Source of the DNA: a phage
Assembly: GCA_033664045.1 (NCBI GenBank)
Contig: GCA_033664045.1_3674.1
Strand: one strand, 5' to 3'
DNA length: 64,000 bases
The notes beneath the pieces are model-generated. The model searched no databases. It worked only from the letters and a program-made list of their open reading frames with translations, and was not told the origin of the DNA. Of the stretch, positions 3,097-58,540 are shown piece after piece. The translations under genes and the position numbers were made by a program. Position 1 is the first letter of the stretch. Each line of letters starts with the position of its first letter.

Positions 3097-4232
3097 ATTG
3101 CTCCAACATTTCTAAGAACGTTAACAAGTTTTGTTTGATCATTGAATGTTCGCTTCATATACAAACAGTCAAAAATTATACTCATCCATTGACCTACGGA
3201 AATTCTACGATCAATACCATTGAAGTCAGTATACTTAACAACACCTTTCGGGAACCACTTCTTGTACTGATCAATAATAGCCACCCACATCTCCTTTGGA
3301 GTGCTGCACTGAGACAGTAGGTAGAATGCTGAGGCATCCCCGAACTTACCCTTACCAATAAGTCCTTGATACGGCTTGATATTGTCAGCAGAGTCACCAC
3401 ACAGCATTTGGTATCCGAAGAACAGCATTCCGTAACCACCAACCTCTCCATTAGGCTTCATGAAGATGTTCCCCATACCGTTATCAATCAGCATAGGGGT
3501 TTCCCTTACAAAATCTCCCTTATCGTTTCGCATGGGATCGAACACAAGCCCCGGTAGTGTTCTTTGGTCCTTATCAATAGAGATAATAAACTTGTTGAAC
3601 TTACCTGTTTTTTGGTAGTGGTTCCAACCTTCAAATTGCTGGATAGCTAACCAGTCGTCAGCCTCGATACCGTTGATCACTTGAGCATTATACTGCTTTT
3701 GGAGATACTGTCTTGCATCTCCAAGCAGCAGTGGTCGAAGAGTATTGTTACGGTTGGCTTTGTATCTTTCCGGCATTGGAAGATCTAGTCTGAAGTTACC
3801 TGTGCCTCCCAACACCCCGATACATCGCTCTTCCGGAATACCAAGATAGTTAAGAACTGCATTAGCTTTACACTTAATTGTGTGTAAGCAGTTCTCTACA
3901 GGATCAGGGGTTTGGATATCCAAGACATCGAAATCTTCGCGTGTCCACGGAATAAACTCCTTTCCAGCCTTTTTACATGCGGCTTCACGGTTGGTATTCT
4001 CAGCTTTTAACCAACCCCCAACGGTGTTCTTCTGCCGCCCCCAGAACTCTGTTCGTGTTTTAAACACCTTCTTTCGCCCGGAGGCTTTGTGTGTTACCTC
4101 AATTGTCCTTTTTTCACAACTTGCCGCAGCTTGATATGCAACCTGGTCGAAGTCATAATAAACTATAGCGTCAGGTTCGAGAAGATCAGCAAGACAATCT
4201 ACAGATTCAATAAGTGGATATTCTCTACTCAA
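3093..4232 (-). CDS. 5'-3' exonuclease / flap endonuclease (FEN, T4 RNase H-like)
   Basis: GIEADDWLA acidic cluster, ISIDKDQ, and H3TH-like LCGDSADNIKPYQGL (compare GDxSDNIPGV of Pol I 5' exo). Confidence 0.7.
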   Translation of the reverse strand: MSREYPLIESVDCLADLLEPDAIVYYDFDQVAYQAAASCEKRTIEVTHKASGRKKVFKTRTEFWGRQKNTVGGWLKAENTNREAACKKAGKEFIPWTREDFDVLDIQTPDPVENCLHTIKCKANAVLNYLGIPEERCIGVLGGTGNFRLDLPMPERYKANRNNTLRPLLLGDARQYLQKQYNAQVINGIEADDWLAIQQFEGWNHYQKTGKFNKFIISIDKDQRTLPGLVFDPMRNDKGDFVRETPMLIDNGMGNIFMKPNGEVGGYGMLFFGYQMLCGDSADNIKPYQGLIGKGKFGDASAFYLLSQCSTPKEMWVAIIDQYKKWFPKGVVKYTDFNGIDRRISVGQWMSIIFDCLYMKRTFNDQTKLVNVLRNVGAI

Positions 4233-4533
4233 AGCCCCTCCTGTTAGTTATTCTGCAAGATGGTTGGATGCTGTAATGAAATGCATCATCACTCTCTGCA
4301 ATAAGTGACTCAACATCCCAATACTTTTCAAAAAGGAACGGATTAGACCCCCAGTGGTGGGTTATTTTCATCAAGGAGTCTGGTATCATATAACCACAGA
4401 TCTTAATTACATCACCCGGTTGAATTGTGTTTTCATGAAGGTTTTTTGCCTTCTTCAGAATCATACCTTTGTGATTCTCATTTGCATACAACTGGACGAT
4501 ATCTTTATCTTCAACAATGAAAATTTTAAGCAT
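4225..4533 (-). CDS. hypothetical protein (102 aa)
   Basis: ORF in operon context only. Confidence 0.35.
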   Translation of the reverse strand: MLKIFIVEDKDIVQLYANENHKGMILKKAKNLHENTIQPGDVIKICGYMIPDSLMKITHHWGSNPFLFEKYWDVESLIAESDDAFHYSIQPSCRITNRRGFE

Positions 4534-4592
4534 ACCTAGTTCTCCTAGTTAATAAATAGTTAACTGATAATATCAGATCAGAGACTCATTTG

Positions 4593-4886
4593 TCAAGACT
4601 TTTTAGTCTTTCTTGGAGAGCTTTTTGTTGATCTTTTTCTTTTGTGGTAAATTCCAAGTGCAGCATTTTCTTGGGCACACGTTTTAACGGTTTTTAGATC
4701 AGATCTTTCAGCTTTAGGTAGATTAAGCTCCCACCAACCCAACCAGTAAAGCTCTGATTCCGACAGCTGCTCAGATTCAGCCTTCCGATACAAGGCTTGC
4801 ATACCTCTGATGATATCGTCCAGAGGTGTATCGAATACAAAAGCTGTCTTATCGAATTTCTCTTTTACAGGTCTCTTAGCCATCAA
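4593..4886 (-). CDS. hypothetical protein (97 aa, basic C-terminus)
   Basis: ORF in operon context; lysine-rich tail. Confidence 0.35.
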   Translation of the reverse strand: MMAKRPVKEKFDKTAFVFDTPLDDIIRGMQALYRKAESEQLSESELYWLGWWELNLPKAERSDLKTVKTCAQENAALGIYHKRKRSTKSSPRKTKKS

Positions 4887-5391
4887 GGTAACCCTCTATC
4901 CACGAAAAGTCAGTCTTCCATTCTGGAACTTTACTAAGCTCACGCCACTCTGCAAAGCAGTCTCGGTAATACGCCTCTGCCATACCTTTGGTGATCTTAT
5001 TCACCTTAGCCAACTGATTAACTGCCTGAGCATACTTTCCACGGATATTTGCTAACCCAGGATGCACCGATGTGTGACAGTCTGGGCACAACGCTATCAG
5101 TCCGACAAGCCGGATCACCCCCTCCTCGAAAGTGTAAAGTTCATGACACTCCACTGGGTGTTTGCTGCCTTTACCGCCGCACACCTCACAGGTGTAGTTG
5201 GCTTCTCTATAGCACTTCTTGCGGATCTTATCCCACTCACTCTTCTTCACAGCGTTTCGTAGGTTATTATACCAAGCTGTTTCTGGGATCAGTTGCACAA
5301 TAAGCCTGCGTTCAGACTTCATTAAACGTCCGTCTTCCACGTGTTCTCCCTCATTCAAAGAAATGGGTGCGAGGGCAGGAACCTGCCTCAC
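4876..5391 (-). CDS. HNH-like zinc-binding nuclease-fold protein, putative
   Basis: CEVCGG...ECHELY...LCPDCH cysteine/histidine arrangement. Confidence 0.4.
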   Translation of the reverse strand: MRQVPALAPISLNEGEHVEDGRLMKSERRLIVQLIPETAWYNNLRNAVKKSEWDKIRKKCYREANYTCEVCGGKGSKHPVECHELYTFEEGVIRLVGLIALCPDCHTSVHPGLANIRGKYAQAVNQLAKVNKITKGMAEAYYRDCFAEWRELSKVPEWKTDFSWIEGYLDG

Positions 5392-5557
5392 CTTGTTTCA
5401 CAAGCTCGTAGAGCTCACCTTGGCTTGTCTCATAAAGGCAAATACGTTTACCATTGTCCCGATATACATCGACAAGATACGCTGTTTCACCTGCAAACAC
5501 GACACCACAGGCCAGACATGCCGCCATGAACAAAATTGCCAACAGAAAATCTTTCAT
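5351..5557 (-). CDS. small secreted/periplasmic protein (68 aa)
   Basis: N-terminal signal-peptide-like LLAILFMAACLACGVVFAGE; lies immediately downstream of endolysin. Confidence 0.4.
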   Translation of the reverse strand: MKDFLLAILFMAACLACGVVFAGETAYLVDVYRDNGKRICLYETSQGELYELVKQGEAGSCPRTHFFE

Positions 5558-16147: not shown

Positions 16148-16546
16148 ATGATTTCAGTTTTAACATGGCTGAGTAGGTATAAAGGGATCATAAAAGGTTT
16201 AGTTTTTGCAGCTGCGATAGGTACAGCTTATCTTGGGGCCGTGTATTGGTTTAACTCCAAGCTTAATGATGCCTACCAGGAGGGTGTGTCAGCAACAGAG
16301 TTAAAGTGGGAACGGATCCTTGATCAGCAACAAAAGCAGGCCGACAAAATTAAAATGGGCCACGCAGAGGAGGTTAAAAACCTTGAAAAATCCCTTTCTG
16401 ACCTGCAGGATAAATTAAATATGGCTGAGAAGGCAGGTAAAGAAAAGCAGATTATTTACCTCCAATCACCTGAGGGTAAGAAGTCAACACTCCCTGATCA
16501 GCTTATAGATATTTATAATGAGAGTATTAATCAGGAGGGTCGATGA
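16148..16546 (+). CDS. i-spanin (Rz-like), putative
   Basis: N-terminal TM helix GLVFAAAIGTAYLGAVYWF followed by charged coiled-coil-like periplasmic region; 3' end overlaps next ORF in ATGA. Confidence 0.55.
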   Translation: MISVLTWLSRYKGIIKGLVFAAAIGTAYLGAVYWFNSKLNDAYQEGVSATELKWERILDQQQKQADKIKMGHAEEVKNLEKSLSDLQDKLNMAEKAGKEKQIIYLQSPEGKKSTLPDQLIDIYNESINQEGR

Positions 16547-16830
16547 GAGTTGCTGCACTGTTTATTGTGTGCTTGTTATTGTGTGGGTGTGCAACCAGCG
16601 TTGAGAGAGAATACAAGATTGACCCTCCAGATGTAGGAAGGTTGATTGTTAAACCCCCGGAAGGTGCCATGAAACCACCTGCTAAAGCTATGCCTTTGAA
16701 GAAAGGTGCGCCAGATGCAGTGAATTCTGGCATTATGAGGGATAATAATCTGTCTTGTAGCAATGATAGAGCTAAATTGATCATTTTGCAAGACTACATT
16801 AGAACACTGTTTCCAAAGGAGAGAGGTTAA
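16543..16830 (+). CDS. o-spanin (Rz1-like lipoprotein), putative
   Basis: Signal peptide with Cys-containing lipobox-like LLLCGCATS, proline-rich mature part (KPPEGAMKPPAKAMP); 4-bp overlap with i-spanin. Confidence 0.55.
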   Translation: MRVAALFIVCLLLCGCATSVEREYKIDPPDVGRLIVKPPEGAMKPPAKAMPLKKGAPDAVNSGIMRDNNLSCSNDRAKLIILQDYIRTLFPKERG

Positions 16831-22819: not shown

Positions 22820-23209
22820 ATGATTACCGCTCAATATTCTGATATCGTGCTCGGCAAAGTCGATTCTAGCGATGCTGGCTACAATTTTAAAGAGATGGAA
22901 ATTACACTGACAGAGCACCATCATGCTGGTACTGTTGTAACAAAAACTGGCACTATCGCTAACGATGATGGCTCAGACGTTTATGGTGTTCTTGTAGACC
23001 GAGCTCTGGTAAAAGATGCAGGAAAAGTTCATCTTGCTGAGCCTCTGCAAACAGGTCAGAAATATAAACTGGTTGTTGCAGTTCACGGTGTTACCTTTGC
23101 AAAAGATAAGCTGCTAGGGTCTAACGGTGAAGCAGCTAAGCAGGCTGTTCTTGAAAAGCTGGAAGCTCTGGGCAACAAAGTTCACGTCCAGACTCTTGGT
23201 GAAGAGTAA
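22820..23209 (+). CDS. head decoration protein (lambda gpD-like), putative
   Basis: About 130 aa, immediately upstream of major capsid gene, as in lambda D-E. Confidence 0.5.
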   Translation: MITAQYSDIVLGKVDSSDAGYNFKEMEITLTEHHHAGTVVTKTGTIANDDGSDVYGVLVDRALVKDAGKVHLAEPLQTGQKYKLVVAVHGVTFAKDKLLGSNGEAAKQAVLEKLEALGNKVHVQTLGEE

Positions 23210-23256
23210 GTCCTAAATTGTTCGGGAAATATTTAAGTTTTACTTTGGAGAAATAA

Positions 23257-24267
23257 ATGATTACTCGTAAAGATGAATTTGGCATTGTTGATTTAGGTGC
23301 TACTCTGGACCTTGTTCCGCGTCAATTCCGCCTGATTACTGGTATGGATCTGTTCGAAACCCGTCTCGGCACCTCAACAATTGCTCAGATTGAGCGTGTT
23401 GATGAAGTTGTAACCGACATTCCGGCACGCCGTCGTGGTGGTGAGCGTAACTACGTTGGTAGTGAACGTGCTCAGGTTAAAAACCTGAACATCCCGTTCT
23501 TCCCTCTGGACAAAGGCATCACCGCAGCAGATGTTCAGAACTTCCGTCGTTACTTCACCCCTGATGCTCCGAAAACTGTTCAGGATGTAGTAACCCGCGT
23601 TGTTCGCCGTATCCGTGTTTCTCATGAAGCACTGCGTGAGAAGGCGCTGTTCCAGGCTATTCTGGGTAAATCCTATGCACCTGGCGACACAACCTGTCAG
23701 TATGACTACTACACTCTGTGGGGTGTTTCTCAGAAGTCTGTTGAGATTGACCCTGCAAAAGCAGATCAGGATCCGATGGAGGTTCTGGAAGAAGCTCGTC
23801 TGCACATCGCGCTGCAAGCTGGCGATAACGCAGCTGGCTATCGTATTGTAGCCCTGTGCTCACCAGAGTTCTTCAGTGCTATTACCCATCATCCTCTGGT
23901 AGAACTGGCATACACCTATTACGGCTCTGCTCAGGAACCTCTGCGTCGCCGTCTGGGTGCTGGCGGTCAAGACAGCGTATACCGTGTGTTTGAGCATAAA
24001 GGTATCACCTTTATCGAAGATATCTCTGGCAATATTCCTAAGAAAGAGGCTCGCATCCTGCCGATGGGTATTGATCAGATGTTCCAGCTGCACTTTGCTC
24101 CGGCAGACGATGTTAACGAAGCAAACACTCCAGCACAGGAACTGTACATGTGGTACAAACACTCTGCATACCTGCGTGAAGAGAAGATTGAATCTGAAAC
24201 TTCTATGCTGGCAGTTAACACCCGCCCAGAGCTGGTTGTTAAAGTAACTCTGAAAAACGGTGGCTAA
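23257..24267 (+). CDS. major capsid protein (lambda gpE-like family)
   Basis: 336 aa (lambda E 341 aa); codon choice looks strongly biased toward high-expression codons; strong terminator follows. Confidence 0.7.
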   Translation: MITRKDEFGIVDLGATLDLVPRQFRLITGMDLFETRLGTSTIAQIERVDEVVTDIPARRRGGERNYVGSERAQVKNLNIPFFPLDKGITAADVQNFRRYFTPDAPKTVQDVVTRVVRRIRVSHEALREKALFQAILGKSYAPGDTTCQYDYYTLWGVSQKSVEIDPAKADQDPMEVLEEARLHIALQAGDNAAGYRIVALCSPEFFSAITHHPLVELAYTYYGSAQEPLRRRLGAGGQDSVYRVFEHKGITFIEDISGNIPKKEARILPMGIDQMFQLHFAPADDVNEANTPAQELYMWYKHSAYLREEKIESETSMLAVNTRPELVVKVTLKNGG

Positions 24268-34972: not shown

Positions 34973-35649
34973 TGGCAATAAATAGGAAAGATGCTGCTGT
35001 AAGATCCTTCATAGAAAAAATAATGAGGGACTACCACACCAGTATCAGGGCCAGAGTTGTCAGTGTAGACTACAGTATCCCTTCTGCAGCCGTGCAGCCA
35101 ATAGCTGAAACCACGTTTGATGACGGGGATGTAGAGAGATACCCTCTTATCTATGACGTTCCAATTCAGGTGATGTCTGCAAACAGCGGAAAGGCAAGGT
35201 TAACACTCCCTATTAAGGCTGGAGATGTTGTAGGATTGCAGTTTTCAGAGAGAAATGAAAACAATAACGACGATCAACAAACTCACGGTCTGTTTCCGGG
35301 GTGGGCAATAACCTCTGTTCATTCAGACTCAAACGCTTTACAGATCGATCCTGATAACGTAGAGTTATGGAATGATAGGGTTTATTTTAAACTGACACCT
35401 TCTGGAGATTTTGAGCTTCAAACACCTGGTGGGACACTACGGTGCGACAGCAGCGGGGAGTTTTCTTTCACTAACGGGGCTGCCAATTTGCGAGCTGCTG
35501 TGGATGGAAATATCAGAATGAATGGTGCCACAATAGACCCATCTGGTAGAATTATAACTGCTGCTGGCGTGGATTTGGATTCATTCTATGCAGAATATAA
35601 AGGTCATACCCACTCTTGTCCTGATGGCGAGACAAGTGGACCGCACTAA
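34972..35649 (+). CDS. baseplate spike protein (gpV/gp5 N-terminal OB-fold-like), putative
   Basis: N-terminus ...HTSIRARVVSVDYS...ARLTLPIKAGDVVGLQF pattern typical of spike OB domain. Confidence 0.45.
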   Translation: MAINRKDAAVRSFIEKIMRDYHTSIRARVVSVDYSIPSAAVQPIAETTFDDGDVERYPLIYDVPIQVMSANSGKARLTLPIKAGDVVGLQFSERNENNNDDQQTHGLFPGWAITSVHSDSNALQIDPDNVELWNDRVYFKLTPSGDFELQTPGGTLRCDSSGEFSFTNGAANLRAAVDGNIRMNGATIDPSGRIITAAGVDLDSFYAEYKGHTHSCPDGETSGPH

Positions 35650-35661
35650 TAGAGGGCTTTC

Positions 35662-36378
35662 ATGGCTACGCTTTATAGTGATATATTGATGGACCCACAG
35701 ACAGGCGATTTGGCGATAGACAAAGGTCTTGAGTTGATAGATTCAAACCAGGTAAGTCTGCGCCAGCGCTTGTGGATGAGGTTTAATACGTGGAAGGGGA
35801 GCTGGTACTTTGACGAGCTGTTTGGCTTCCCTTATATGGACTTTCTCAGCAAGAAGGTCATGAAGACTGTTCTTGATAACAAGATCATGGAAGTAGCAAG
35901 ACAAGAGCCGGATGTGCTAAACATCATAAACTTCCAGTCTACCATGGATCGAAGATCGAGAACATACCAAGCGTTCTTTGAGGTTGTTACCAAAGAGAAC
36001 GAGATTGTAAGGCTGGCTTTCGTAGGTCTTGATCAGTTCACATACCCACAGCCTGATTCTGGGACAACCTCTCTCTGTGATGATGAGGGTTGGATTAAGT
36101 GGGCTAATAAACTGTACTATCTGATCAACTTCAGATTACCTAGAACCGGAGATGCCACATGGTGGAACCAGTATGCTGGTCCTGAGATGGAAAACCCGAT
36201 CCCTGTAGGTTCTCTGTTGACTCAGGATAAAGATCTGCTGATGACCGAGGCAGAACAAACCATTAACCGCAATACCTGGACGCTTGCTCCAGATGAGCGC
36301 GAATACTCTGGTGTTATTGCTACCTCTAATGATGAGGCTATTGCCAACCAGTCTGGTCGTGCTATTGATGTTAACTAA
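35662..36378 (+). CDS. baseplate protein, putative
   Basis: N-terminal MDPQTGDLAIDKGLELIDSNQVSLRQRLWMRF resembles small baseplate-family signatures. Confidence 0.35.
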   Translation: MATLYSDILMDPQTGDLAIDKGLELIDSNQVSLRQRLWMRFNTWKGSWYFDELFGFPYMDFLSKKVMKTVLDNKIMEVARQEPDVLNIINFQSTMDRRSRTYQAFFEVVTKENEIVRLAFVGLDQFTYPQPDSGTTSLCDDEGWIKWANKLYYLINFRLPRTGDATWWNQYAGPEMENPIPVGSLLTQDKDLLMTEAEQTINRNTWTLAPDEREYSGVIATSNDEAIANQSGRAIDVN

Positions 36379-36387
36379 GGAGAAATC

Positions 36388-37056
36388 ATGGCTGTAGCTT
36401 ATCCTACAATACCAATTCCAGATCTTGAAGATGCAGAAACAGTCCTGAGTGATGACTTCTTGGTTGTCAACCAGACTGATGGGACAAGAAAGGCTAAGAT
36501 TGACGATGTTGTCAACGATCTTAGCATTACTAAGATAGTCTATTTCACAGAGGGTGGTTATCTTAAGAGCAAGAAGGACTTTGCTTATGACCCAGAAACT
36601 AAGCGCTACTACACGTGGAACGGGGATTATCCTAAAATAATCCTCCCAGACTCCACTGTAGAGGGTGCTGGAGGTGTGTCTGCAAATGCCTGGTCTGTTT
36701 TTGGTGAGCTTGCTGCAACTTCTTCTGGTAGAATAGTTGATTACGGATCTATCGGTGGTCAGCTTGATATGGATCTTGAAGTTGCGGATACCTTTAAGGT
36801 TCGACTAACTTCAAATACCACAATCTCTTTTGAAAATCAAACAGAAGGTCTTGAAGGGGTGGCGAGAACTATAACCGTATGCATTACTCAGACCTCTGGC
36901 GGCAACAAAGTCTATTGGCCTGGTAATGTTAAATGGTCCTACGGAAGAGATCCTATCCTAACATTTACAGCTGGTGCAACAGACATTTTCAAGTTGGAAA
37001 CCTACGACAACGGGTTAACTTGGTACGGAGCACTGATTATCGCAGGAGCTATCTAA
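36388..37056 (+). CDS. tail fibre/spike anchor-domain protein
   Basis: About 100 N-terminal residues align with the N-terminus of the 39691 fibre (DD.LVV.Q.D.TR.KI.DVV ... EGG.L...DFAY ... W.G..P). Confidence 0.5.
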   Translation: MAVAYPTIPIPDLEDAETVLSDDFLVVNQTDGTRKAKIDDVVNDLSITKIVYFTEGGYLKSKKDFAYDPETKRYYTWNGDYPKIILPDSTVEGAGGVSANAWSVFGELAATSSGRIVDYGSIGGQLDMDLEVADTFKVRLTSNTTISFENQTEGLEGVARTITVCITQTSGGNKVYWPGNVKWSYGRDPILTFTAGATDIFKLETYDNGLTWYGALIIAGAI

Positions 37057-50605: not shown

Positions 50606-51292
50606 ATGGCAGAGATTAAGTCGGATGTTAACCACATCCACACTCTGCCAGATTTTGTTCAGGGAGGTCTTGACTACCTGCCTGGAGATTTTCTGGCTGA
50701 GAAGGTTAATTTAGTCACATTCTTAACCGTATACCTTAAAAGGTTGGAGGATGTTGATAAGATGCTGGTAGGTTTGGCTGAAGGAAGATTGCTTAACAAT
50801 GCCAGCGGAAGATACCTTGACGAAGTTGGTAATCAACTTGGTATTCTTAGGAATGGACTTTCAGATGCTGATTTTCGTGCCACACTAATTATTCAGCAGG
50901 CCGCAGCATCAAGGGGCGGGACTCGCGAAGATGTCATCTCCACCTTGCGACAATTGTTCGGAAGAGACAATTTCGATACGTGGAAAGGAGACAACTTCAG
51001 GTTTGACATAAATATTAGAAAAACTTGCTTTGACATATTGCAGTCTATCGATCAGATCTTAGATATGCTGCCATTGCCTTGTCATTTGCGTCTTACAGAA
51101 TCGCAAGGGCAAGCTTTTGGTTTTGAAGGGGACTCTACAGCTCTTGGCTTCGGATCAGTGTGGGAAGAAAACCAATTCGGAGTTGGTGGGCTGGCTACTT
51201 TGCTATATGTTCCTGACGTAAGACCTGATTGGGACACCACAACCATTTATTGTGAAAGTATTACAGTAAACGCAACTAGACAGGAGGGTTAA
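50606..51292 (+). CDS. baseplate/tail fibre-proximal protein (gpI-like?), hypothetical
   Basis: Gene order after J-like protein. Confidence 0.35.
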   Translation: MAEIKSDVNHIHTLPDFVQGGLDYLPGDFLAEKVNLVTFLTVYLKRLEDVDKMLVGLAEGRLLNNASGRYLDEVGNQLGILRNGLSDADFRATLIIQQAAASRGGTREDVISTLRQLFGRDNFDTWKGDNFRFDINIRKTCFDILQSIDQILDMLPLPCHLRLTESQGQAFGFEGDSTALGFGSVWEENQFGVGGLATLLYVPDVRPDWDTTTIYCESITVNATRQEG

Positions 51293-53364
51293 TGGCAACA
51301 GCTGTTTTTAAACCTTACCGTGATTACTCTACAATGGCTGCACAGTTTCATTACCGAACAGTTCAGGATACTGCCGTTCCTGGTAGGGATTATAATCATG
51401 TTGAGGGCGATGTAACTATCCCAATTGGGGCAACCAGTATTGAAATCCCAGTGGAAATTGTTGACAAATTACCCAACAGGTTACCAAGAAGCTTCTTTAT
51501 GGAGTTTTCATCAAAATCTCAAGGGGTGATGATTGGGACACAAAGGGCAAAATGCACAATAGTTTCAGATGAGAATCTTGACAGGATATCTTGGGATACT
51601 GTTGAGGAGAGAATGTTTCACCCAAGATATTGGGTTACAACCACCCAGCAGACTGAAAGTACCTGTATTGTTGCAGATGACAACTGTTGTATTAACCGTT
51701 TAGTGTCAAGAACATATGGAGGTATGGCTGGGTGCATTTGGGAAACAGTTGACAAGTATGACCATTTCGGTATTGGGTTTGATGATCACTATGAGATGAG
51801 AAACACCAAGCTTTGGTTCAGAATGTCAATAACCAATGCCAGCAACTTCTCCACTCCTGAAAAGATGATTATGACTGTAGACCTTGTTGATGGCACAATC
51901 ATCTATGTTCCTTTAGCTCAATATGCTGTCAGCATCTCAGAGGATAAGAATGTTGCAGAGATTCATATTGATTTCGAGGACTGCGTCGGGATGGATCAGA
52001 ACAACAACATGATGGGTGTTGATCCTCGACAGGTGAGAAGGATTTTAATACCGCTTATGCCTAAAGATTGGGTAAGTAATAGCACAGACCCGAGAACGGA
52101 AAATGTAGAGTGCGAGTTGCGCTTAGACCTGCTTCAGCCAGACACAGGTTGGAAAATGATGCAACTTAACAATATTCAGGTTAAAGAGCACGACGTTGGG
52201 ATCTGCACCGCATATGACGATATGTGGAACGTATCTCCTTTAAGGGTGTTGAACAATATCAAGCGTCTGGGCTATACCGGAACCATAAACCATTATGTTG
52301 GTATGAGTCATTATTATGACTACACATGGTCAGGAACCCAATGGTCTATAAACAGAACAGGGGCGCTAAACGCTGCAGCTTATAAATGGCATGATGATTT
52401 TATGTACAATGCCAAACGACATAACTTCGACGTTATGCAGTCTGTAAGTTTTGAGCTTTACAGCGATGCCTGTCCGTTGGAATGGACCCAAAGAGACTGG
52501 AACGATAACTACGCTAAAACAGGGTATACACCTTGTAGCTACCTCCTGTCTCCAACCATTGAAGAGGGTATGAATTTCCTTACGGCAGTATTTAAGAATT
52601 TTGCATCAGCCGCTATGAGAAACAACCTGCCAGTGATTATGCAGATTGGTGAACCGTGGTGGTGGTTCAATACCGATACTCGTAAGCCTTGTATTTATGA
52701 TTACCCTACAAAACAGGCGTTTTATGATGAGACAGGCGAGTATGCATTAGATATTGGGACTATTGACGATCCTAAAACTGGCGGTGTTTACGACAAGTAT
52801 GTAGCATTTTGTCGTGGTAAGCTTGGCGCTCGTATTGCGGCTATTTCAAAGGCAATAAAAGCACACGCTGCATCAGCTCAGATGACAGCTTTGCTGTTTT
52901 TCCCAACCATTATGGAAACCGAGCTTACGCAAAAGCTGAACCTTGCTGACCAATATAAAAAGGAAGCAGGTGCTCTTGATTTCTTCTGCACTGAGTGCTA
53001 CGATTGGGTGATGCAGGGAGGTATTGAAAAGGCAAAAGAGTCTGTAAACATACCTATCGTTAAGTTAGGTTGGCAACCGTCTGAAATACAATACCTTGCA
53101 GGGTTCGTTCCTAGTAAAGAGCTTGCTCCGGTATATGGCTACGACCCAACCAGGAATTACCAAGAATTTTTATGGAGATGTATCTGCGGGAACATGGCAA
53201 CCATAGAGTATAGATACCCTGAGGTAAAACAGTATGTGTGGGCATACCCGCAAGTAATGTCTGACAGCATCACTGTTACCGCTAGGGATTCTACCGTGCT
53301 TCATATGGGGCAGGTTGCTCTGAAAGGGTATGTAGAAGATGTTGTCCCGCCAGACTTCTCATAA
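51292..53364 (+). CDS. virion protein with N-terminal Calx-beta-like domain
   Basis: HYRTVQDTAVPGRDYNHVEGDVTIPIGATSIEIPVEIVDKLP resembles Calx-beta; large cysteine/tryptophan-rich C-terminal domain of unknown function. Confidence 0.4.
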   Translation: MATAVFKPYRDYSTMAAQFHYRTVQDTAVPGRDYNHVEGDVTIPIGATSIEIPVEIVDKLPNRLPRSFFMEFSSKSQGVMIGTQRAKCTIVSDENLDRISWDTVEERMFHPRYWVTTTQQTESTCIVADDNCCINRLVSRTYGGMAGCIWETVDKYDHFGIGFDDHYEMRNTKLWFRMSITNASNFSTPEKMIMTVDLVDGTIIYVPLAQYAVSISEDKNVAEIHIDFEDCVGMDQNNNMMGVDPRQVRRILIPLMPKDWVSNSTDPRTENVECELRLDLLQPDTGWKMMQLNNIQVKEHDVGICTAYDDMWNVSPLRVLNNIKRLGYTGTINHYVGMSHYYDYTWSGTQWSINRTGALNAAAYKWHDDFMYNAKRHNFDVMQSVSFELYSDACPLEWTQRDWNDNYAKTGYTPCSYLLSPTIEEGMNFLTAVFKNFASAAMRNNLPVIMQIGEPWWWFNTDTRKPCIYDYPTKQAFYDETGEYALDIGTIDDPKTGGVYDKYVAFCRGKLGARIAAISKAIKAHAASAQMTALLFFPTIMETELTQKLNLADQYKKEAGALDFFCTECYDWVMQGGIEKAKESVNIPIVKLGWQPSEIQYLAGFVPSKELAPVYGYDPTRNYQEFLWRCICGNMATIEYRYPEVKQYVWAYPQVMSDSITVTARDSTVLHMGQVALKGYVEDVVPPDFS

Positions 53365-53376
53365 TCAGGAGATAAA

Positions 53377-54417
53377 ATGTCAAAACCTAGTTTTCCATTA
53401 GAGATTTGGGCAGAGGAGGATCAGGTTCTGCCTAACACCCACAGACAGAACAGGCTACGCCCGATTGATGATTTGTGGAGAAAAGGTTGGGATCTTGGTC
53501 AAAAGCCATCCTGTGAAGAACTTAACTATATTTTCAATATGCTCGGGACTTGGGCAAAATACATTGCTGACGAGCAGATCCCCGCTCAAGAAGGCCGCTA
53601 TCTGGTACGTGATAATAACTTGAGTGATCTTTTGAACATCCCTGTTGCCCGTAGAAACCTTGGAATTATTACTAAGGAAGAGGCAGACGCCAGGTATGTA
53701 AAAGTTACAGGTGATACAATGACAGGCCCATTGGGTTTGCAACGTATCAACTTTAAAGCTGCCGAGACAGATAAGGCTTGGATAGAGACAACTATTGGCC
53801 CAGATAAGACAACTCTCGACTTTGGGTTAAGTGATAATATTGGGGCGTTTGATGATGGTGGCACCTCTACAGTAGATGCGTTCCGTTGGAGATTTCAGCC
53901 AACTCAGCCGGACATTAACCCAGAGTTCACTTTGATGTATCTGAACGCAATCACGGCTAATCGTGCGTTGTTGAAAGTGGTGGGCAATGTTGAAGTTGTT
54001 GATAACATGCGATGTAATAACCTCACCATTAGCAGCACAGCAACATTCACCAACTGCAATGTAGCTAGTCAGTTGACGGCTGGGTCAGTATATGTCAATG
54101 GCGGTGCAAGTTGTGACAGTATGGTTGTAAGAAGCCAGCATTGTGTTGTCGGTAACAGAAATGTGGTGCGCTCTGTGAATGGAGTGACGGCTAACGGCAA
54201 CGGAGATGTAACGATCACCATCCCGCAGACAGGTGTACAGGATATCAGAATCGGCGCAAGACTTGTTGATGGTGTTTCTGAATCTCCAGTTCGCAACGGC
54301 TACGTTGTCACAGGTTGGCATTTTGGTGATAAAAAAGAGATGCGTGGTTCAACCTACTGGGCAGGGCCTTTACAGAAACTTGTAAATGGTCAATGGATCA
54401 CTGTTAATTATGCGTAG
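53377..54417 (+). CDS. tail fibre protein (paralog A)
   Basis: ARRNLGI and GDTMTGPLGLQRI fibre-repeat motifs; C-terminus LQKLVNGQWITVNYA shared with 55432 paralog. Confidence 0.7.
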   Translation: MSKPSFPLEIWAEEDQVLPNTHRQNRLRPIDDLWRKGWDLGQKPSCEELNYIFNMLGTWAKYIADEQIPAQEGRYLVRDNNLSDLLNIPVARRNLGIITKEEADARYVKVTGDTMTGPLGLQRINFKAAETDKAWIETTIGPDKTTLDFGLSDNIGAFDDGGTSTVDAFRWRFQPTQPDINPEFTLMYLNAITANRALLKVVGNVEVVDNMRCNNLTISSTATFTNCNVASQLTAGSVYVNGGASCDSMVVRSQHCVVGNRNVVRSVNGVTANGNGDVTITIPQTGVQDIRIGARLVDGVSESPVRNGYVVTGWHFGDKKEMRGSTYWAGPLQKLVNGQWITVNYA

Positions 54418-54431
54418 ATCGGAGGACTAGT

Positions 54432-55016
54432 ATGAAAATACTTCAAGAGTTTAAGCTTTACCAACCGGGATCTGGCGAATACCACGCCAACAAGGAAACC
54501 AAGGAGCTGACCCCTCAAGAGGTTGAGGATTACACTGCATACACCGGGTATTTTTTACGTAATGATGATGGCGATTGGTATGTGCAGTCACGAACATTAC
54601 GACAAGAAAATCCGGGTTGTATCTTCCTCCTTGTTGACGAGAAGGGTATTCTTAAGACATCTACAGAAGAACCTGATGCCTTGTGGCCTGCTCCGGGTCT
54701 TCGTGTGGTTATCGCCAAAAAAGAAGAGGTACCAGAAAACATTATGCTCCACCACGACGCTTTGCGTTTAGTTGGTGATGAATTTGTCACAGACAATGAA
54801 TTCTTTGTTCAACAGGCAGAGGGTGTCATAGAGACAGAACTTGCTTGGGCTACTGCTAGAATTGGTGCCTATCAAGACATGATTGACCTTGAATACGATC
54901 TTACTGATGACCAAAAACGCAACATCAGAGATTTGAAAATGTACAGGGTAAAACTTCTTGAAATAGATACATCTAAAGCCCCTGACATTTTCTTCCCGGA
55001 ACGACCTACCCTCTAA
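54432..55016 (+). CDS. tail fibre assembly protein (Tfa-like chaperone)
   Basis: C-terminal YRVKLLEIDTSKAPDIFFPERP matches the Tfa signature; immediately follows a fibre gene. Confidence 0.65.
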   Translation: MKILQEFKLYQPGSGEYHANKETKELTPQEVEDYTAYTGYFLRNDDGDWYVQSRTLRQENPGCIFLLVDEKGILKTSTEEPDALWPAPGLRVVIAKKEEVPENIMLHHDALRLVGDEFVTDNEFFVQQAEGVIETELAWATARIGAYQDMIDLEYDLTDDQKRNIRDLKMYRVKLLEIDTSKAPDIFFPERPTL

Positions 55017-55027
55017 GAGGAGGTGTT

Positions 55028-55342
55028 GTGGAGTTGGATTTGGCGGCATTGTACGGTATCTGCATGGGTACCGTTGTCCCGATCTGTGTATGGGCTTTCA
55101 ACCAGTGGCACACCAAATGGAAAGGCATTTCCAAGAGGTTGGATGAACTGGAGAAAGACCTCATCTTAGTGAAAAACAGTATGGTTACAAAAGATAAACT
55201 TGATTCCGTTATCGAGACCCGGTTAAGCAAGCTAGAGGCCGATATTAACGACCTTAAGCAGGATGTCAGGACAGATGTCTCCGGTATCCGAGCTGATGTA
55301 CAAAAGATTTTGCACATGCTTGTAGAGCATAGTAAAAGGTAA
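55028..55342 (+). CDS. small membrane/coiled-coil protein (candidate holin or antiholin, or fibre chaperone)
   Basis: N-terminal TM segment LAALYGICMGTVVPICVWAF followed by coiled-coil-like charged region. Confidence 0.3.
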   Translation: MELDLAALYGICMGTVVPICVWAFNQWHTKWKGISKRLDELEKDLILVKNSMVTKDKLDSVIETRLSKLEADINDLKQDVRTDVSGIRADVQKILHMLVEHSKR

Positions 55343-55431
55343 ACAAAGGTCAGAACGGAAAGGACTCCGTTCTTGCATTTTGTTCTCTAAAGTGTTAAAA
55401 TAGTCCTAAGGAATTTTCTCAGGAGAACGCG

Positions 55432-56475
55432 ATGACTAAACCAGTTATCCCTCTTGATATTTGGGCCAATCAGGATGTTGTGCTTGAAAATACGGGAGAA
55501 TTGAATAAGTCCCAACCAAAAAAAGAAGAGAGATTGAAAGGTTGGGATATGACACAAAGAGTGGCATGTGAAGTTGTTAACTTTGAACTTCACATGCTTT
55601 CTGCGTGGTTAAAGCATTTAACAGAAGATGTTGTCCCAGGATGGGATAATAGATTCTTAAGGGTCACTAATAATCTGGCAGACGTTCCAGACAAAGCTGC
55701 TGCACGTCAAGTTCTCAATGTATACTCGCCTGAAGAAATGGATGACCTTTATGTTGACAAGGCTGGAGACACAATGATCCAGACTCAAACTTTAGGTCTT
55801 CAAAGAATCGAGTTTGCATCCGCGTCAACAGACAATGCGGCGATATACACCACCATAACTCCAGACAAGACGACAATGGATTTCTGGATTATGGACAACA
55901 TCGGTGGTGCTGACGGCACAGATCTTGATGATCCTTCTCACCAAATAGACGGGTTCCGTTGGAGATTTCAACCTTCTGGTGGGCAGCCTGTGTTTTCGGC
56001 TATGAAGCTCAATGCTATAACTGCCAACCGTGCAAGACTGGCTATCCAAGGGAATCTTGAATGCAACGATGCAAAAAGTTCCTCTGCAAATGCCAATTCG
56101 GTCACGATACCAAGAGCCGCTGTTAACGGACAACAATCCTGCGGAAGCGCTCAAATAGGTGGAAGAGTAGATTGTAACGATAAAACCGCCAGAGGTCAAT
56201 ATGCAACAGTTGGTGGAAGAAACGTGGTCCGCAGGGTAAATGGTAGTAGCGCAGACAGTAGTGGTAACCTTACTATTCCTATGCCTAGTAGGGGTGTTGA
56301 AGATGTAAGGATAGCAAACCGTTTCAGAACCACCTACAGAGAATCAAGAGTATACCCTGGGCATGTAATGTGCTCCGGCAATTACGCCTATAAACACCCG
56401 TATCAGGGCGACTATTGGACTGGAGCTATTCAAAAATTTGTAAACGGTCAATGGATCACCATATCTTATGCTTAA
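55432..56475 (+). CDS. tail fibre protein (paralog B)
   Basis: GDTMIQTQTLGLQRIEF motif and conserved C-terminus IQKFVNGQWITISYA; colinear with 53377 but diverged centrally. Confidence 0.7.
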   Translation: MTKPVIPLDIWANQDVVLENTGELNKSQPKKEERLKGWDMTQRVACEVVNFELHMLSAWLKHLTEDVVPGWDNRFLRVTNNLADVPDKAAARQVLNVYSPEEMDDLYVDKAGDTMIQTQTLGLQRIEFASASTDNAAIYTTITPDKTTMDFWIMDNIGGADGTDLDDPSHQIDGFRWRFQPSGGQPVFSAMKLNAITANRARLAIQGNLECNDAKSSSANANSVTIPRAAVNGQQSCGSAQIGGRVDCNDKTARGQYATVGGRNVVRRVNGSSADSSGNLTIPMPSRGVEDVRIANRFRTTYRESRVYPGHVMCSGNYAYKHPYQGDYWTGAIQKFVNGQWITISYA

Positions 56476-56484
56476 AGAGGGTAA

Positions 56485-56751
56485 ATGAAATTAACTCAGT
56501 TTTTATGGGGACTGGTTGCAGCATCTGATGACCCTACAAAAGTGTCCCAATCTAAGCTATGGTCAAACATAGGCATGGCAGTGATGACTGGGGTTTTTAT
56601 TCATATGGGGTACAATGATACGCTTCCTGAATGGTATGCGTGGATATACGCACCTTCAGTAGCCTGCCCCCAGCTTATTAGCAAATTCATCTCGCTCCGG
56701 TGGGGTTGCCAGCACCCTGACCACGTTAAAAACGAAGAGCAAAAAGCTTAA
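56485..56751 (+). CDS. small two-TM protein, candidate holin
   Basis: Two hydrophobic segments (LTQFLWGLVAAS; NIGMAVMTGVFIHMG) and charged C-terminus KNEEQKA. Confidence 0.3.
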   Translation: MKLTQFLWGLVAASDDPTKVSQSKLWSNIGMAVMTGVFIHMGYNDTLPEWYAWIYAPSVACPQLISKFISLRWGCQHPDHVKNEEQKA

Positions 56752-56760
56752 GGAGAAATC

Positions 56761-58506
56761 ATGGCGCAAGACATGACAAGCTTCGAGCAGGCGGTAGATC
56801 AAGTAATTGTTGATTCTGAACGTTTGCACTTGATTGTCAACGGTAACGCTGTGGATGAAGTTGTCGTAGAGGATGGGACCACCATCCCTACGGTACGAAA
56901 AGCCATGCTTGACACCCTTTATTTTAAAACGCCACCAATCCCTTGGGCGTATGGTGCATCCACAACAGTTTTTAACCAGTTGTATGAGTTTAAAGGGGAT
57001 ACAGGCCCTCAGTGGTGGTACGCCCCAGCAGCATCAAAATCTAACCCGGTTAGGATGCCAGCAGATCCTTCACAATCTCCGAACTGGAGATTATATACCG
57101 ATTCTGCAGTAATGGCAAAATACTACGCAAAACTTAACAGCCCAAGATTCGAAGGTGACCCGCGAGTACCTACACCTCCAATGGACGATAAGTCCGAGTC
57201 TATAGCAAACACAGAGTTTGTTGTGGACTATGTGGATAGCATATTTAAAGCCATGGAGGGGATGAAAGTTACTGTAGGGTCTTTGGTGGTAAAAGGTCTT
57301 ACAGAACTTGCTAACACCATAGTTGGTGGCACCCTTACCTTACACGGGCCTGTTAATGGAGCGGATTCTACTGCACGCTTCAGGAACCTAATCCTTACTG
57401 CAAATACTTCTACACTGACTTTTGCGTGGAGCGATCCTAAGCATGCAGACTGGAGAAGCACAGAGCTGCAACCTCATGAAGTAGCCACCCACAGAGTTAT
57501 AGCTGACACTATAACTTCTGGGAAACCAGTGGCTAATAACAACGATGTGCATTTTGATGGTCTAGGTAATAACTTTTTTGACTACGTGTACATTCGTGGT
57601 AATGCCATGAAGGCAGCAACCGAACCGACATTGCAGGTTGATGGGACCACCAGGGTTAAGAACCTTGAGGTGACAGGTACCGTTACAGGGATAACCTACT
57701 CTGTAGATGGCACCATGATCTACCCTAGCTATATTGAAAGCACGGGAGATGCACTGATCAATGGAGATTTAGAGGTTGGCGGATCTATAGTCATTCGTGG
57801 CACAGCATCCGTCCAGAACATATCTTTAAATACTCTGCGGGTGAATGAGCGTGCCACTTTTGAAGGAGAAGGGCTTACAGCCAACAAAGGTGCAATTACC
57901 GAGCTGACAACCACTACTCTAACTGCAACAACTGCAAACTCTGAAAACTGCAACGTTACCCGAAACTTGCAGGTAAATGGAGATGTTAGTTTAAACGCAG
58001 CAGGGACGGGCACCACCTACCTTCACAACCTTGAAATATCCGGCACAGTGACTGGGTGGCTGCCAGACTTCTCTAATGTCAACTTTGTTTGTAATGGCAT
58101 TAACTCCAGCGGTAAGATAACCACCTCTCAAGAAATTGAGGCGGGTAAAACCATTACTGCCCCTACTTTCCACGCAGGAAAGGTAGATTTTGATTTAGAG
58201 GAGGTTGACGCGTCCAGTGGGACATGGACACCTAACGGGCAGGCCAGTATGTATGTTGTCCACGCTAAAGGGGATTTTACAATAGGTCAGTGGCCTGGGA
58301 CATCAGCGGAAGATAAACCTTATCCATTCACTGCAGTTATCTATGTCATTCAGGATGCTGTAGGTCACAACGTGACTTTGCACGATAAGTATGCTATCCT
58401 GTCGGCAACACCTGTTATTAACAACAAGGCTAACAGTGTTACCTTGCTGCAATTAACGTATTGTGGTGTTGGTGATATCGTAGACGTAGTAATTGCACAA
58501 CGTTAA
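56761..58506 (+). CDS. tail fibre/spike protein
   Basis: 581 aa, threonine/glycine/asparagine-rich beta-type repeats typical of fibre shafts. Confidence 0.5.
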   Translation: MAQDMTSFEQAVDQVIVDSERLHLIVNGNAVDEVVVEDGTTIPTVRKAMLDTLYFKTPPIPWAYGASTTVFNQLYEFKGDTGPQWWYAPAASKSNPVRMPADPSQSPNWRLYTDSAVMAKYYAKLNSPRFEGDPRVPTPPMDDKSESIANTEFVVDYVDSIFKAMEGMKVTVGSLVVKGLTELANTIVGGTLTLHGPVNGADSTARFRNLILTANTSTLTFAWSDPKHADWRSTELQPHEVATHRVIADTITSGKPVANNNDVHFDGLGNNFFDYVYIRGNAMKAATEPTLQVDGTTRVKNLEVTGTVTGITYSVDGTMIYPSYIESTGDALINGDLEVGGSIVIRGTASVQNISLNTLRVNERATFEGEGLTANKGAITELTTTTLTATTANSENCNVTRNLQVNGDVSLNAAGTGTTYLHNLEISGTVTGWLPDFSNVNFVCNGINSSGKITTSQEIEAGKTITAPTFHAGKVDFDLEEVDASSGTWTPNGQASMYVVHAKGDFTIGQWPGTSAEDKPYPFTAVIYVIQDAVGHNVTLHDKYAILSATPVINNKANSVTLLQLTYCGVGDIVDVVIAQR

Positions 58507-58515
58507 TATATCTAA

Positions 58516-58540
58516 CCGCTCCTGACGGGGCGGTTTTCTT
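58516..58540 (+). terminator. rho-independent terminator
   Basis: CCGCTCC-tgac-GGGGCGG followed by TTTTCTT. Confidence 0.65.

Follow-up and report, generated by a model that had tools for sequence, protein, structure and literature searches.

The 64,000-nucleotide stretch of phage DNA analyzed here (GenBank assembly GCA_033664045.1, contig GCA_033664045.1_3674.1; hereafter, the window) raises the question of which protein serves as the holin in rV5-like phages. The 5.3-kb stretch around the two genes under study is 96–97% identical to genomes such as FV3, JEP1, and JES2013, which assigns the window to the genus Vequintavirus (rV5/FV3-like). Its endolysin, a phage lysozyme (5621–6091, − strand; phrog_90) whose rV5 counterpart gp89 carries PF00959, contains no N-terminal hydrophobic or signal-anchor-release (SAR) segment. 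Thus, the enzyme is soluble, and a true hole-forming holin is needed. The papers on this group considered here (rV5, CB7, KPP-1, BASEL) offer no confidently identified one. For rV5, no homolog of a holin was reported, and gp129 was nominated as the sole protein with two transmembrane domains (TMDs) according to both TMHMM and Phobius. In the CB7 paper, the proposal falls on another small protein, encoded next to a SleB-like gene, and the spanins are placed next to the terminase; the KPP-1 and BASEL papers describe similar difficulty in naming a holin. An initial annotation of the window had pointed to two small open reading frames (ORFs) within the tail-fiber cluster as holin/antiholin candidates. 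We found both on the + strand, ORF1 (104 amino acids (aa); ortholog of rV5 gp31) at 55028–55342 and ORF2 (88 aa; ortholog of rV5 gp29) at 56485–56751. This observation is confirmed, and its interpretation is partly supported. Judged from sequence relationships and gene contexts, ORF2 probably is a holin-class lysis protein of an unrecognized, DUF2644-like family (phrog_1322). ORF1 as an accessory or regulator of lysis is the less certain part, and on balance we lean toward the whole proposal, in which ORF2 is a holin or a holin-class inner-membrane lysis protein and ORF1 assists it.

The ORF2 family and the lysis cassettes of smaller phages

ORF2 is preceded by a good Shine–Dalgarno sequence and tightly packed between the genes for gp30 and gp28. 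It has a single Met start and no dual start like that of lambda S or S21, the next Met being residue 31. The protein matches phrog_1322 with an E value of 2.7e-32. A profile of close homologs retrieved 72 representatives at E ≤ 1e-3 from 1.84 billion proteins, and all of the 69 family representatives that were scanned matched phrog_1322 (69/69). Many of the relatives show weak or full matches to PF10841 (DUF2644), and the source of one close homolog gives DUF2644 as its name; on rescanning, PF10841 matched 5 of the 69 members, and several more carry precomputed matches. ORF2 itself gave no match in Pfam or NCBIfam at E ≤ 10, and its link to DUF2644 is transitive, via P0036, a lysis-cassette member of the family from locus L013. 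In tblastn searches of a 2.3-Gb database, P0036 matched the rV5-like ORF2 with E values of 2e-9 to 6e-9 and the Klebsiella relatives with 1e-14. Thus, the homology between the cassette proteins and ORF2 of the window does not depend on the profile alone. Neither resource gives the DUF2644/phrog_1322 family a function, the PHROG label being "membrane protein," and DUF2644 is mentioned nowhere in the literature searched. A Foldseek comparison of the ORF2 model with BFVD returned only uncharacterized relatives and non-significant "holin" matches.

We read ORF2 as a probable holin because many smaller phages, often Mu-like ones, carry a member of its family at the holin position of their lysis cassettes, in most cases right behind the endolysin gene and ahead of the spanin genes. 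In L011, L012, and Pseudomonas phage Bise, the genes follow each other in the order Mor, soluble VanY-type endolysin, ORF2-like protein (with overlapping stop and start codons), inner-membrane spanin (i-spanin), TMD plus coiled-coil protein, and terminase; the i-spanin gene holds an embedded gene for a proline-rich lipobox outer-membrane spanin (o-spanin). In L013, the ORF2-like gene comes after a Peptidase_M15_4 endolysin. L010 carries a lysozyme-like fragment, the ORF2-like gene, a lipoprotein gene, and genes for DUF2730, Mu gp27, and TerL. In L019 and L020, the ORF2-like gene is followed by those for i-spanin and o-spanin, and L022 encodes a GH108 endolysin, a coiled-coil/TMD protein, the ORF2-like protein, and an Rz-like protein. 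The source names of ten such lysis-cassette homologs of ORF2 read only "hypothetical protein." As a side observation, the Bise record (L031) contains a reverse-transcriptase-family gene near its end (35606–36637, + strand).

To count such settings, IMG/VR was scanned with a DUF2644-type alignment, which confirmed 205 loci. The best 80 of these 205 were kept, 57 on contigs smaller than 80 kb and 23 on larger ones, and searched for endolysins within 2.5 kb using seven endolysin seeds. A seed match was found at 21 of the 57 loci on the smaller contigs, and in 16 of those 21 the endolysin gene ended 0–54 bp upstream of the ORF2-like gene on the same strand. By our rough estimate, such an abutment with the endolysin gene would occur by chance for ~4% of random genes in a phage of ~55 genes. 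A lipobox ORF lay close by in 27/57. Reading the neighboring genes and scanning them against Pfam added GH19 endolysins (L043, L044, L058), an Amidase_2 endolysin (L097), and spanin pairs (L049, L086, L087, L110), which brought the lysis-cassette setting to at least 39 of the 57 smaller loci. Endolysins of six unrelated classes occur as partners of the family, and such mixing and matching is typical of holins; the pairing therefore counts in favor of the holin class. Fiber or tail-fiber assembly protein (TAP) genes adjoin the ORF2-like gene on a few of the smaller contigs (L063, L072, partly L071, L018, L021). In L063 and L072, a gp28-like fiber gene stands directly 3' of it, as in the large myoviruses.

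The initial annotation had described ORF2 as a protein with two transmembrane segments and a charged C-terminus. Two hydrophobic segments are present (~25–43 and ~50–70), both of them weak, with Kyte–Doolittle values of ~1.0. An AlphaFold2 (AF2) model based on a 69-sequence alignment has a pLDDT of 76 and shows a helical hairpin (residues 22–43 and 49–73) whose tail is disordered. From the basic residues on either side of the helices (K19/K24 and K67/R72) and the acidic loop between them, we predict an N-in/C-in orientation. The helices are marginal by this topology prediction, a check that the initial annotation had suggested, and the transmembrane character of the two segments is thus upheld in part. 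The tail of ~15 residues is indeed charged, although the charge is mixed (2 K/R, 3 D/E, 2 His) and not net basic; it is hydrophilic and varies across the family. The family has sequence motifs of its own, SHTK-W-N and SKF-S-R/K-G.

The sequence between ORF1 and the gp30 gene (55380–55416, + strand; TTGTTCTCTAAAGTGTTAAAATAGTCCTAAGGAATTT) matches without a difference P030, which the rV5 study predicted with MEME and lists among its eight putative late promoters (Table S4, part C). P030 heads a unit that consists of the short-tail-fiber paralog gp30 (55432–56475; phrog_4465), ORF2, and the fiber protein gp28 (56761–58506) and is closed by a terminator (58514–58535) corresponding to t028 of the same table; all of these lie on the + strand. 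Because ORF2 is located between P030 and t028, we predict that it is co-transcribed late with gp30 and gp28. According to the mechanism we propose, ORF2 would thus be made late on a transcript shared with fiber genes, would enter the inner membrane as a hairpin of two helices in N-in/C-in orientation, and would build up there. At a set time, it would permeabilize the membrane, so that the soluble lysozyme-type endolysin could reach the peptidoglycan, and the spanins (16148–16830) would next disrupt the outer membrane. ORF1 might act as an accessory or regulator of this ORF2-dependent step, by analogy with the Mu releasin gp25 (DUF2730) or with XhlA-type partners.

Several findings weigh against this proposal. 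At none of the 23 IMG/VR loci on contigs of 80 kb or more was an endolysin-seed match found within 2.5 kb, and in all large myoviruses examined the ORF2-like gene lies among fiber and baseplate genes, never beside the endolysin or the spanins. The ORF2 helices are SAR-like in their low hydrophobicity and marginal as TMDs, and gp29 is without a TMD entry in Table S3 of the rV5 paper, which was compiled with TMHMM and Phobius. The family is also unusually well conserved for a holin (PEW...LRWG motifs). Some cassettes encode other possible holins: in L013 a 116-aa protein with a TMD, encoded upstream of the endolysin, in L049 a three-TMD protein of 119 aa (4312–4671) that follows the spanin pair and may be a second holin or an antiholin, and in Bise a 96-aa protein with two TMDs (23024–23314, − strand), in opposite orientation between the tail chaperone and tape-measure genes. 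In such phages, the ORF2-like protein could therefore be an antiholin or a regulator. On the side of ORF1, its family was found only in large myoviruses, and it keeps its TAP neighbor in phi92-like genomes where the ORF2-like gene has moved off. Finally, the orthologs of ORF1 and ORF2 were not among the targets in the EdH4 Cas13a and CRISPRi-ART papers.

ORF1 and the organization of the locus

ORF1 starts with GTG, seven bases past GAGGAGG, and belongs to phrog_5345. Residues 5–23 are strongly hydrophobic, with a Kyte–Doolittle value of 1.9 over 19 residues, and gp31 is entered as "membrane protein, 1 TMD" in Table S3 of the rV5 paper. An acidic N-terminus precedes the hydrophobic segment, and a basic junction, KWKGISKR, comes right after it. 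This arrangement predicts an N-out/C-in orientation with one TMD, a call based only on the positive-inside rule. The AF2 model shows helices at residues 3–51 and 55–103; at its low confidence (pLDDT 57), it says only that the protein is helical. Pfam matches are weak and of the coiled-coil type. The description in the initial annotation, one N-terminal transmembrane helix followed by a coiled coil, thus agrees with our data, and ORF1 is predicted to be a membrane-tethered cytoplasmic coiled-coil protein. Its assignment as the antiholin, by contrast, was not supported: a predicted N-out/C-in protein with a cytoplasmic coiled coil is unlike T4 RI and T, and homology to lysis proteins was not detectable. 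The identity of ORF1 as an i-spanin was rejected, since the reverse topology is predicted, no lipobox ORF is adjacent, and a canonical spanin pair exists at 16148–16830.

In RefSeq, the FV3 copy of ORF1 (L001, 7765–8043) is annotated as a protein of 92 aa starting from an internal ATG, at the cost of half the predicted TMD. We favor the longer form because of the GTG start with its GAGGAGG and because the homologs in other genera comprise 104–113 aa. Another naming matter concerns the ORF1-type protein P0136 (Phi92_gp149) and a DUF2730-type protein in L014 (4234–4512; phrog_462), which are labelled "lipoprotein" at NCBI and in PHROGs. Both sequences are without any cysteine; therefore, no lipobox is possible, and the label probably reflects a mistake passed on between records.

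For ORF1, 120 protein-cluster homologs were found, and both ORF1 and ORF2 are common to rV5-like, Seunavirus, Certrevirus, phi92-like, phAPEC8-like, and Aeromonas Plateaulakevirus phages and to Klebsiella relatives. Since the homologs are many and kept across several phage genera, both ORFs are real genes and not chance reading frames. The ORF1-like gene always stands directly after the TAP gene, in rV5-like, Seunavirus, Certrevirus, phi92-like, phAPEC8-like, and Aeromonas phages alike. Seunavirus, Certrevirus, and the Aeromonas phage share the gene order short fiber, TAP, ORF1-like, a protein here called X, ORF2-like, and fiber, so that genes for three membrane proteins stand in a row. X is a polytopic membrane protein of 146–157 aa with 5–6 hydrophobic segments (L004, 3500–3973; L005, 3519–3977; L009, 4496–4936). 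The Seunavirus protein matches phrog_7451, PcCB7V calls it a "putative serine protease," and it is unannotated in the Aeromonas phage 2L372X. In rV5-like phages, the place of X is filled by the fiber paralog gp30. In phi92-like and phAPEC8-like phages, the ORF2-like gene (Phi92_gp144) is now found just before the baseplate J gene, and the ORF1-like gene (Phi92_gp149) is still located after TAP. The taxonomy entry of one Seunavirus-like Salmonella phage, L004 (PQ002170.1), reads Demerecviridae. TMD plus coiled-coil partners also recur beside the ORF2-like genes in L008, L014, L011, L020, and L022.

On the + strand of the window, which is opposite to the orientation of the rV5 record, the locus comprises gp33, gp32, ORF1, a hairpin, gp30, ORF2, gp28, a terminator, and the giant immunoglobulin-like gp27. 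The short tail fiber gp33 (53377–54417) and the fiber protein gp28 were assigned from the ORF list and family scans. The TAP gp32 (54432–55016; Caudo_TAP) is encoded immediately 5' of ORF1. ORF1 terminates the preceding late unit, whose start, at P036, precedes the baseplate J gene. A terminator-like hairpin (55352–55373, + strand) with an 8-bp stem and then TGCATTTTGT comes directly after ORF1. The ortholog of rV5 gp34 (51292–53364, + strand) contains Calx-beta, NCTSP_N, and the TIM-barrel of a "non-contractile tail sheath protein" (E 1e-79), that is, a non-contractile-tail-sheath domain inside a myovirus fiber cluster. A further side observation is that 16–21 GenBank records named "Campylobacter phage" (MG0656xx, host C. 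jejuni) are ~96% identical to rV5-like coliphages across this region; these records are probably mislabelled or derived from contaminated preparations.

The initial annotation had found no holin near the endolysin or the spanins, and for the window this is correct: besides ORF1 and the two spanins, the only small transmembrane protein on a coding strand is that of a 68-aa ORF. The i-spanin (16148–16546, + strand) and the o-spanin (16543–16830, + strand; lipobox LLCGC) correspond to phrog_4297 and phrog_1267 and to the pair described in the LL12 and CB7 papers; the o-spanin gene lies immediately 5' of a terminase-region ORF at 16830. The 68-aa ORF (5351–5557, − strand; rV5 gp90, phrog_4641) is located directly downstream of the endolysin gene. 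Its product is strongly hydrophobic at the N-terminus, may carry a lipobox (MAAC), and ends in an acidic domain; it is the sole small membrane or secreted protein adjoining the endolysin.

Other explanations for the two proteins

A rival candidate for the holin is gp129, encoded outside the window. In this explanation, a gp129-type protein would be the true holin, and ORF1 and ORF2 would have other membrane roles. Apart from its nomination in the rV5 paper, gp129 has the textbook shape of a class II holin (78 aa, two strong TMDs, basic tail) and looks more classical than ORF2, which counts against our proposal. However, its gene belongs to transcription unit 82–163, and because this unit carries sigma70-like promoters, gp129 appears to be an early or middle gene, unlike known holins, which are late genes according to the Mu releasin paper. 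It is also found only in the genus Vequintavirus (116 records), with identities down to 53% in FV3, whereas ORF2 is common to the related genera examined. Its family, phrog_10061, has no function label, and later annotators did not take gp129 as a holin. We therefore regard gp129 as an unlikely holin, if a serious contender.

The initial annotation had itself offered fiber-associated chaperones or membrane-anchored accessory proteins as the alternative. In this explanation, ORF1 and possibly ORF2 would be non-virion, membrane-anchored chaperones for tail-fiber or baseplate assembly that act with TAP on the gp12-like short fibers. Such a function would agree with the invariant position of ORF1-like genes behind TAP, with the small coiled-coil domain of ORF1 and the restriction of its family to large myoviruses, and with the virion data. 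No peptides of gp29 or gp31 occur in the mass spectrometry data (MudPIT) of rV5 virions, and CB7_33 to CB7_35 are missing from the CB7 virion list, in which CB7_31, CB7_36, and CB7_37 are present. Absence from the virion is as expected of chaperones but carries little weight, since small membrane proteins readily escape detection. ORF1 might presumably be likened to the T4 chaperone gp57A. No fiber-folding role is known, though, for a TM anchor with a short periplasmic N-terminus, and in the cassettes of Mu-like phages ORF2-like genes adjoin endolysin and spanin genes, not fiber genes. Moreover, the TMD plus coiled-coil partners accompany them within lysis cassettes, too. As an explanation for both proteins, a chaperone function is thus rather improbable. 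For ORF1 it stays alive because of the invariant place after the TAP gene, and here a membrane-anchored helper of fiber assembly and a lysis accessory of the releasin or XhlA type are about equally tenable; for ORF2, the relatives in lysis cassettes speak against it.

Superinfection exclusion or receptor masking, as by T5 Llp, Cor, or T4 Imm, would also fit small membrane proteins encoded next to receptor-binding fibers, and the PHROG category of phrog_1322 is "moron, auxiliary metabolic gene and host takeover." In Acidovorax phage ACP17 (L015, 3893–4330) and Stenotrophomonas phage IME-SM1 (L016, ~4001–4207), the ORF2 homolog lies beside the DNA polymerase gene, and T4 imm is two genes away from gene 43. 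Both copies are on the strand opposite to the replication genes, however, which for ACP17 argues against this parallel. The replication genes of these two phages are annotated as T4-like; the ACP17 copy carries an additional TMD at its N-terminus, and the IME-SM1 copy is unannotated. A comparison of the ORF2 family with T4 Imm gave an hhalign probability of 1.1%, neither ORF1 nor ORF2 has a signal peptide or a lipobox, the promoter context is late, and the family is systematically linked to endolysins and spanins. We consider an exclusion function very improbable.

If ORF2 is a holin-class protein, as we propose, the novelty lies in the assignment of its family, DUF2644-like/phrog_1322, to a functional class that is already known. 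The assignment would fill an annotation gap in at least 374 deposited phage records that encode an ORF2-type protein, would attach a function to a Pfam DUF, and would provide those Mu-like phages that have soluble endolysins with their missing hole-former, a case left open by the Mu releasin paper. Phages related to rV5, PVP-SE1, CR3, and phi92 are widely isolated and used in biocontrol and therapy, and the holin sets lysis timing and burst size. A more far-reaching version, which we consider doubtful, would combine ORF1, ORF2, and, in the sister genera, X into a conserved lysis-timing module within the fiber operon, composed of a new holin family and a releasin-like regulator. Transposable phages and large virulent myoviruses would then have a common logic, and lysis timing might be coupled to tail-fiber completion.

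Comparison with known lysis systems

The combination of a coiled-coil membrane protein and a two-TMD holin is known from the XhlA/XhlB system of PBSX. The short single-TMD coiled-coil proteins that accompany ORF2-like proteins in L008, L020, and L022 form a similar pair with them. The matches of ORF1-family members to XhlA are sub-threshold (E ~0.01; 15.8 bits versus a cutoff of 34.7 bits) and of a general coiled-coil type, and the TMD of XhlA is located at the opposite end of the protein from that of ORF1.

The closer likeness of ORF1 is to Mu gp25, the DUF2730 releasin. The Mu releasin paper describes gp25 as a protein of ~100 aa with N-out/C-in topology, a basic membrane–cytoplasm junction, and a cytoplasmic domain. 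ORF1 likewise has ~100 aa, an N-terminal TMD, a predicted N-out/C-in orientation, a basic junction, and a helical cytoplasmic domain of ~75 aa, and DUF2730-type proteins occur together with ORF2-like genes in the cassettes of Mu-like phages. Homology was not supported, with hhalign probabilities of 3.4% and 9.5% and no PF10805 match in Pfam scans at E ≤ 10, so the resemblance is one of analogy and not of membership. The endolysins differ as well: Mu gp22 is a SAR endolysin, and the enzyme of the window is not. The same paper reports DUF2730 from transposable phages only and notes that it also occurs with soluble endolysins.

The initial annotation had cited T4 gene t as a precedent for the placement, and this parallel is valid: t directly follows the fiber assembly gene 38 (order 37, 38, t), the same place that ORF1 occupies after the TAP gene. 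Like ORF1, the T4 holin T has one N-terminal TMD. It differs in size (218 versus 104 aa) and in predicted topology, which is opposite; T exposes a large periplasmic domain. An hhalign comparison of ORF1 with T gave a probability of 0.2%, and homology was rejected.

The layout of T7 is even closer. Its class II holin gp17.5 (67 aa; Pfam Phage_holin_T7) resembles ORF2 in having two weak-to-moderate TMDs, a predicted N-in/C-in orientation, and a hydrophilic C-terminal tail, and the hydrophobicity of the ORF2 helices is similar to that of TMD1 of gp17.5 (1.23). The two are not detectably homologous (BLASTP E 0.32; hhalign probability 3.5% with a seven-member T7-type alignment). In T7, the tail fiber gene 17 is followed by the holin gene 17.5, the terminase small subunit, the spanins, and the terminase large subunit. 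The endolysin gp3.5 is encoded far away, in the class II region. The window shows the same arrangement, with the proposed holin right after a tail-fiber gene, the spanins beside the terminase, and the endolysin far off in an earlier region. Given the layouts of T7 and T4, scattered lysis genes with a holin gene behind a fiber gene are normal.

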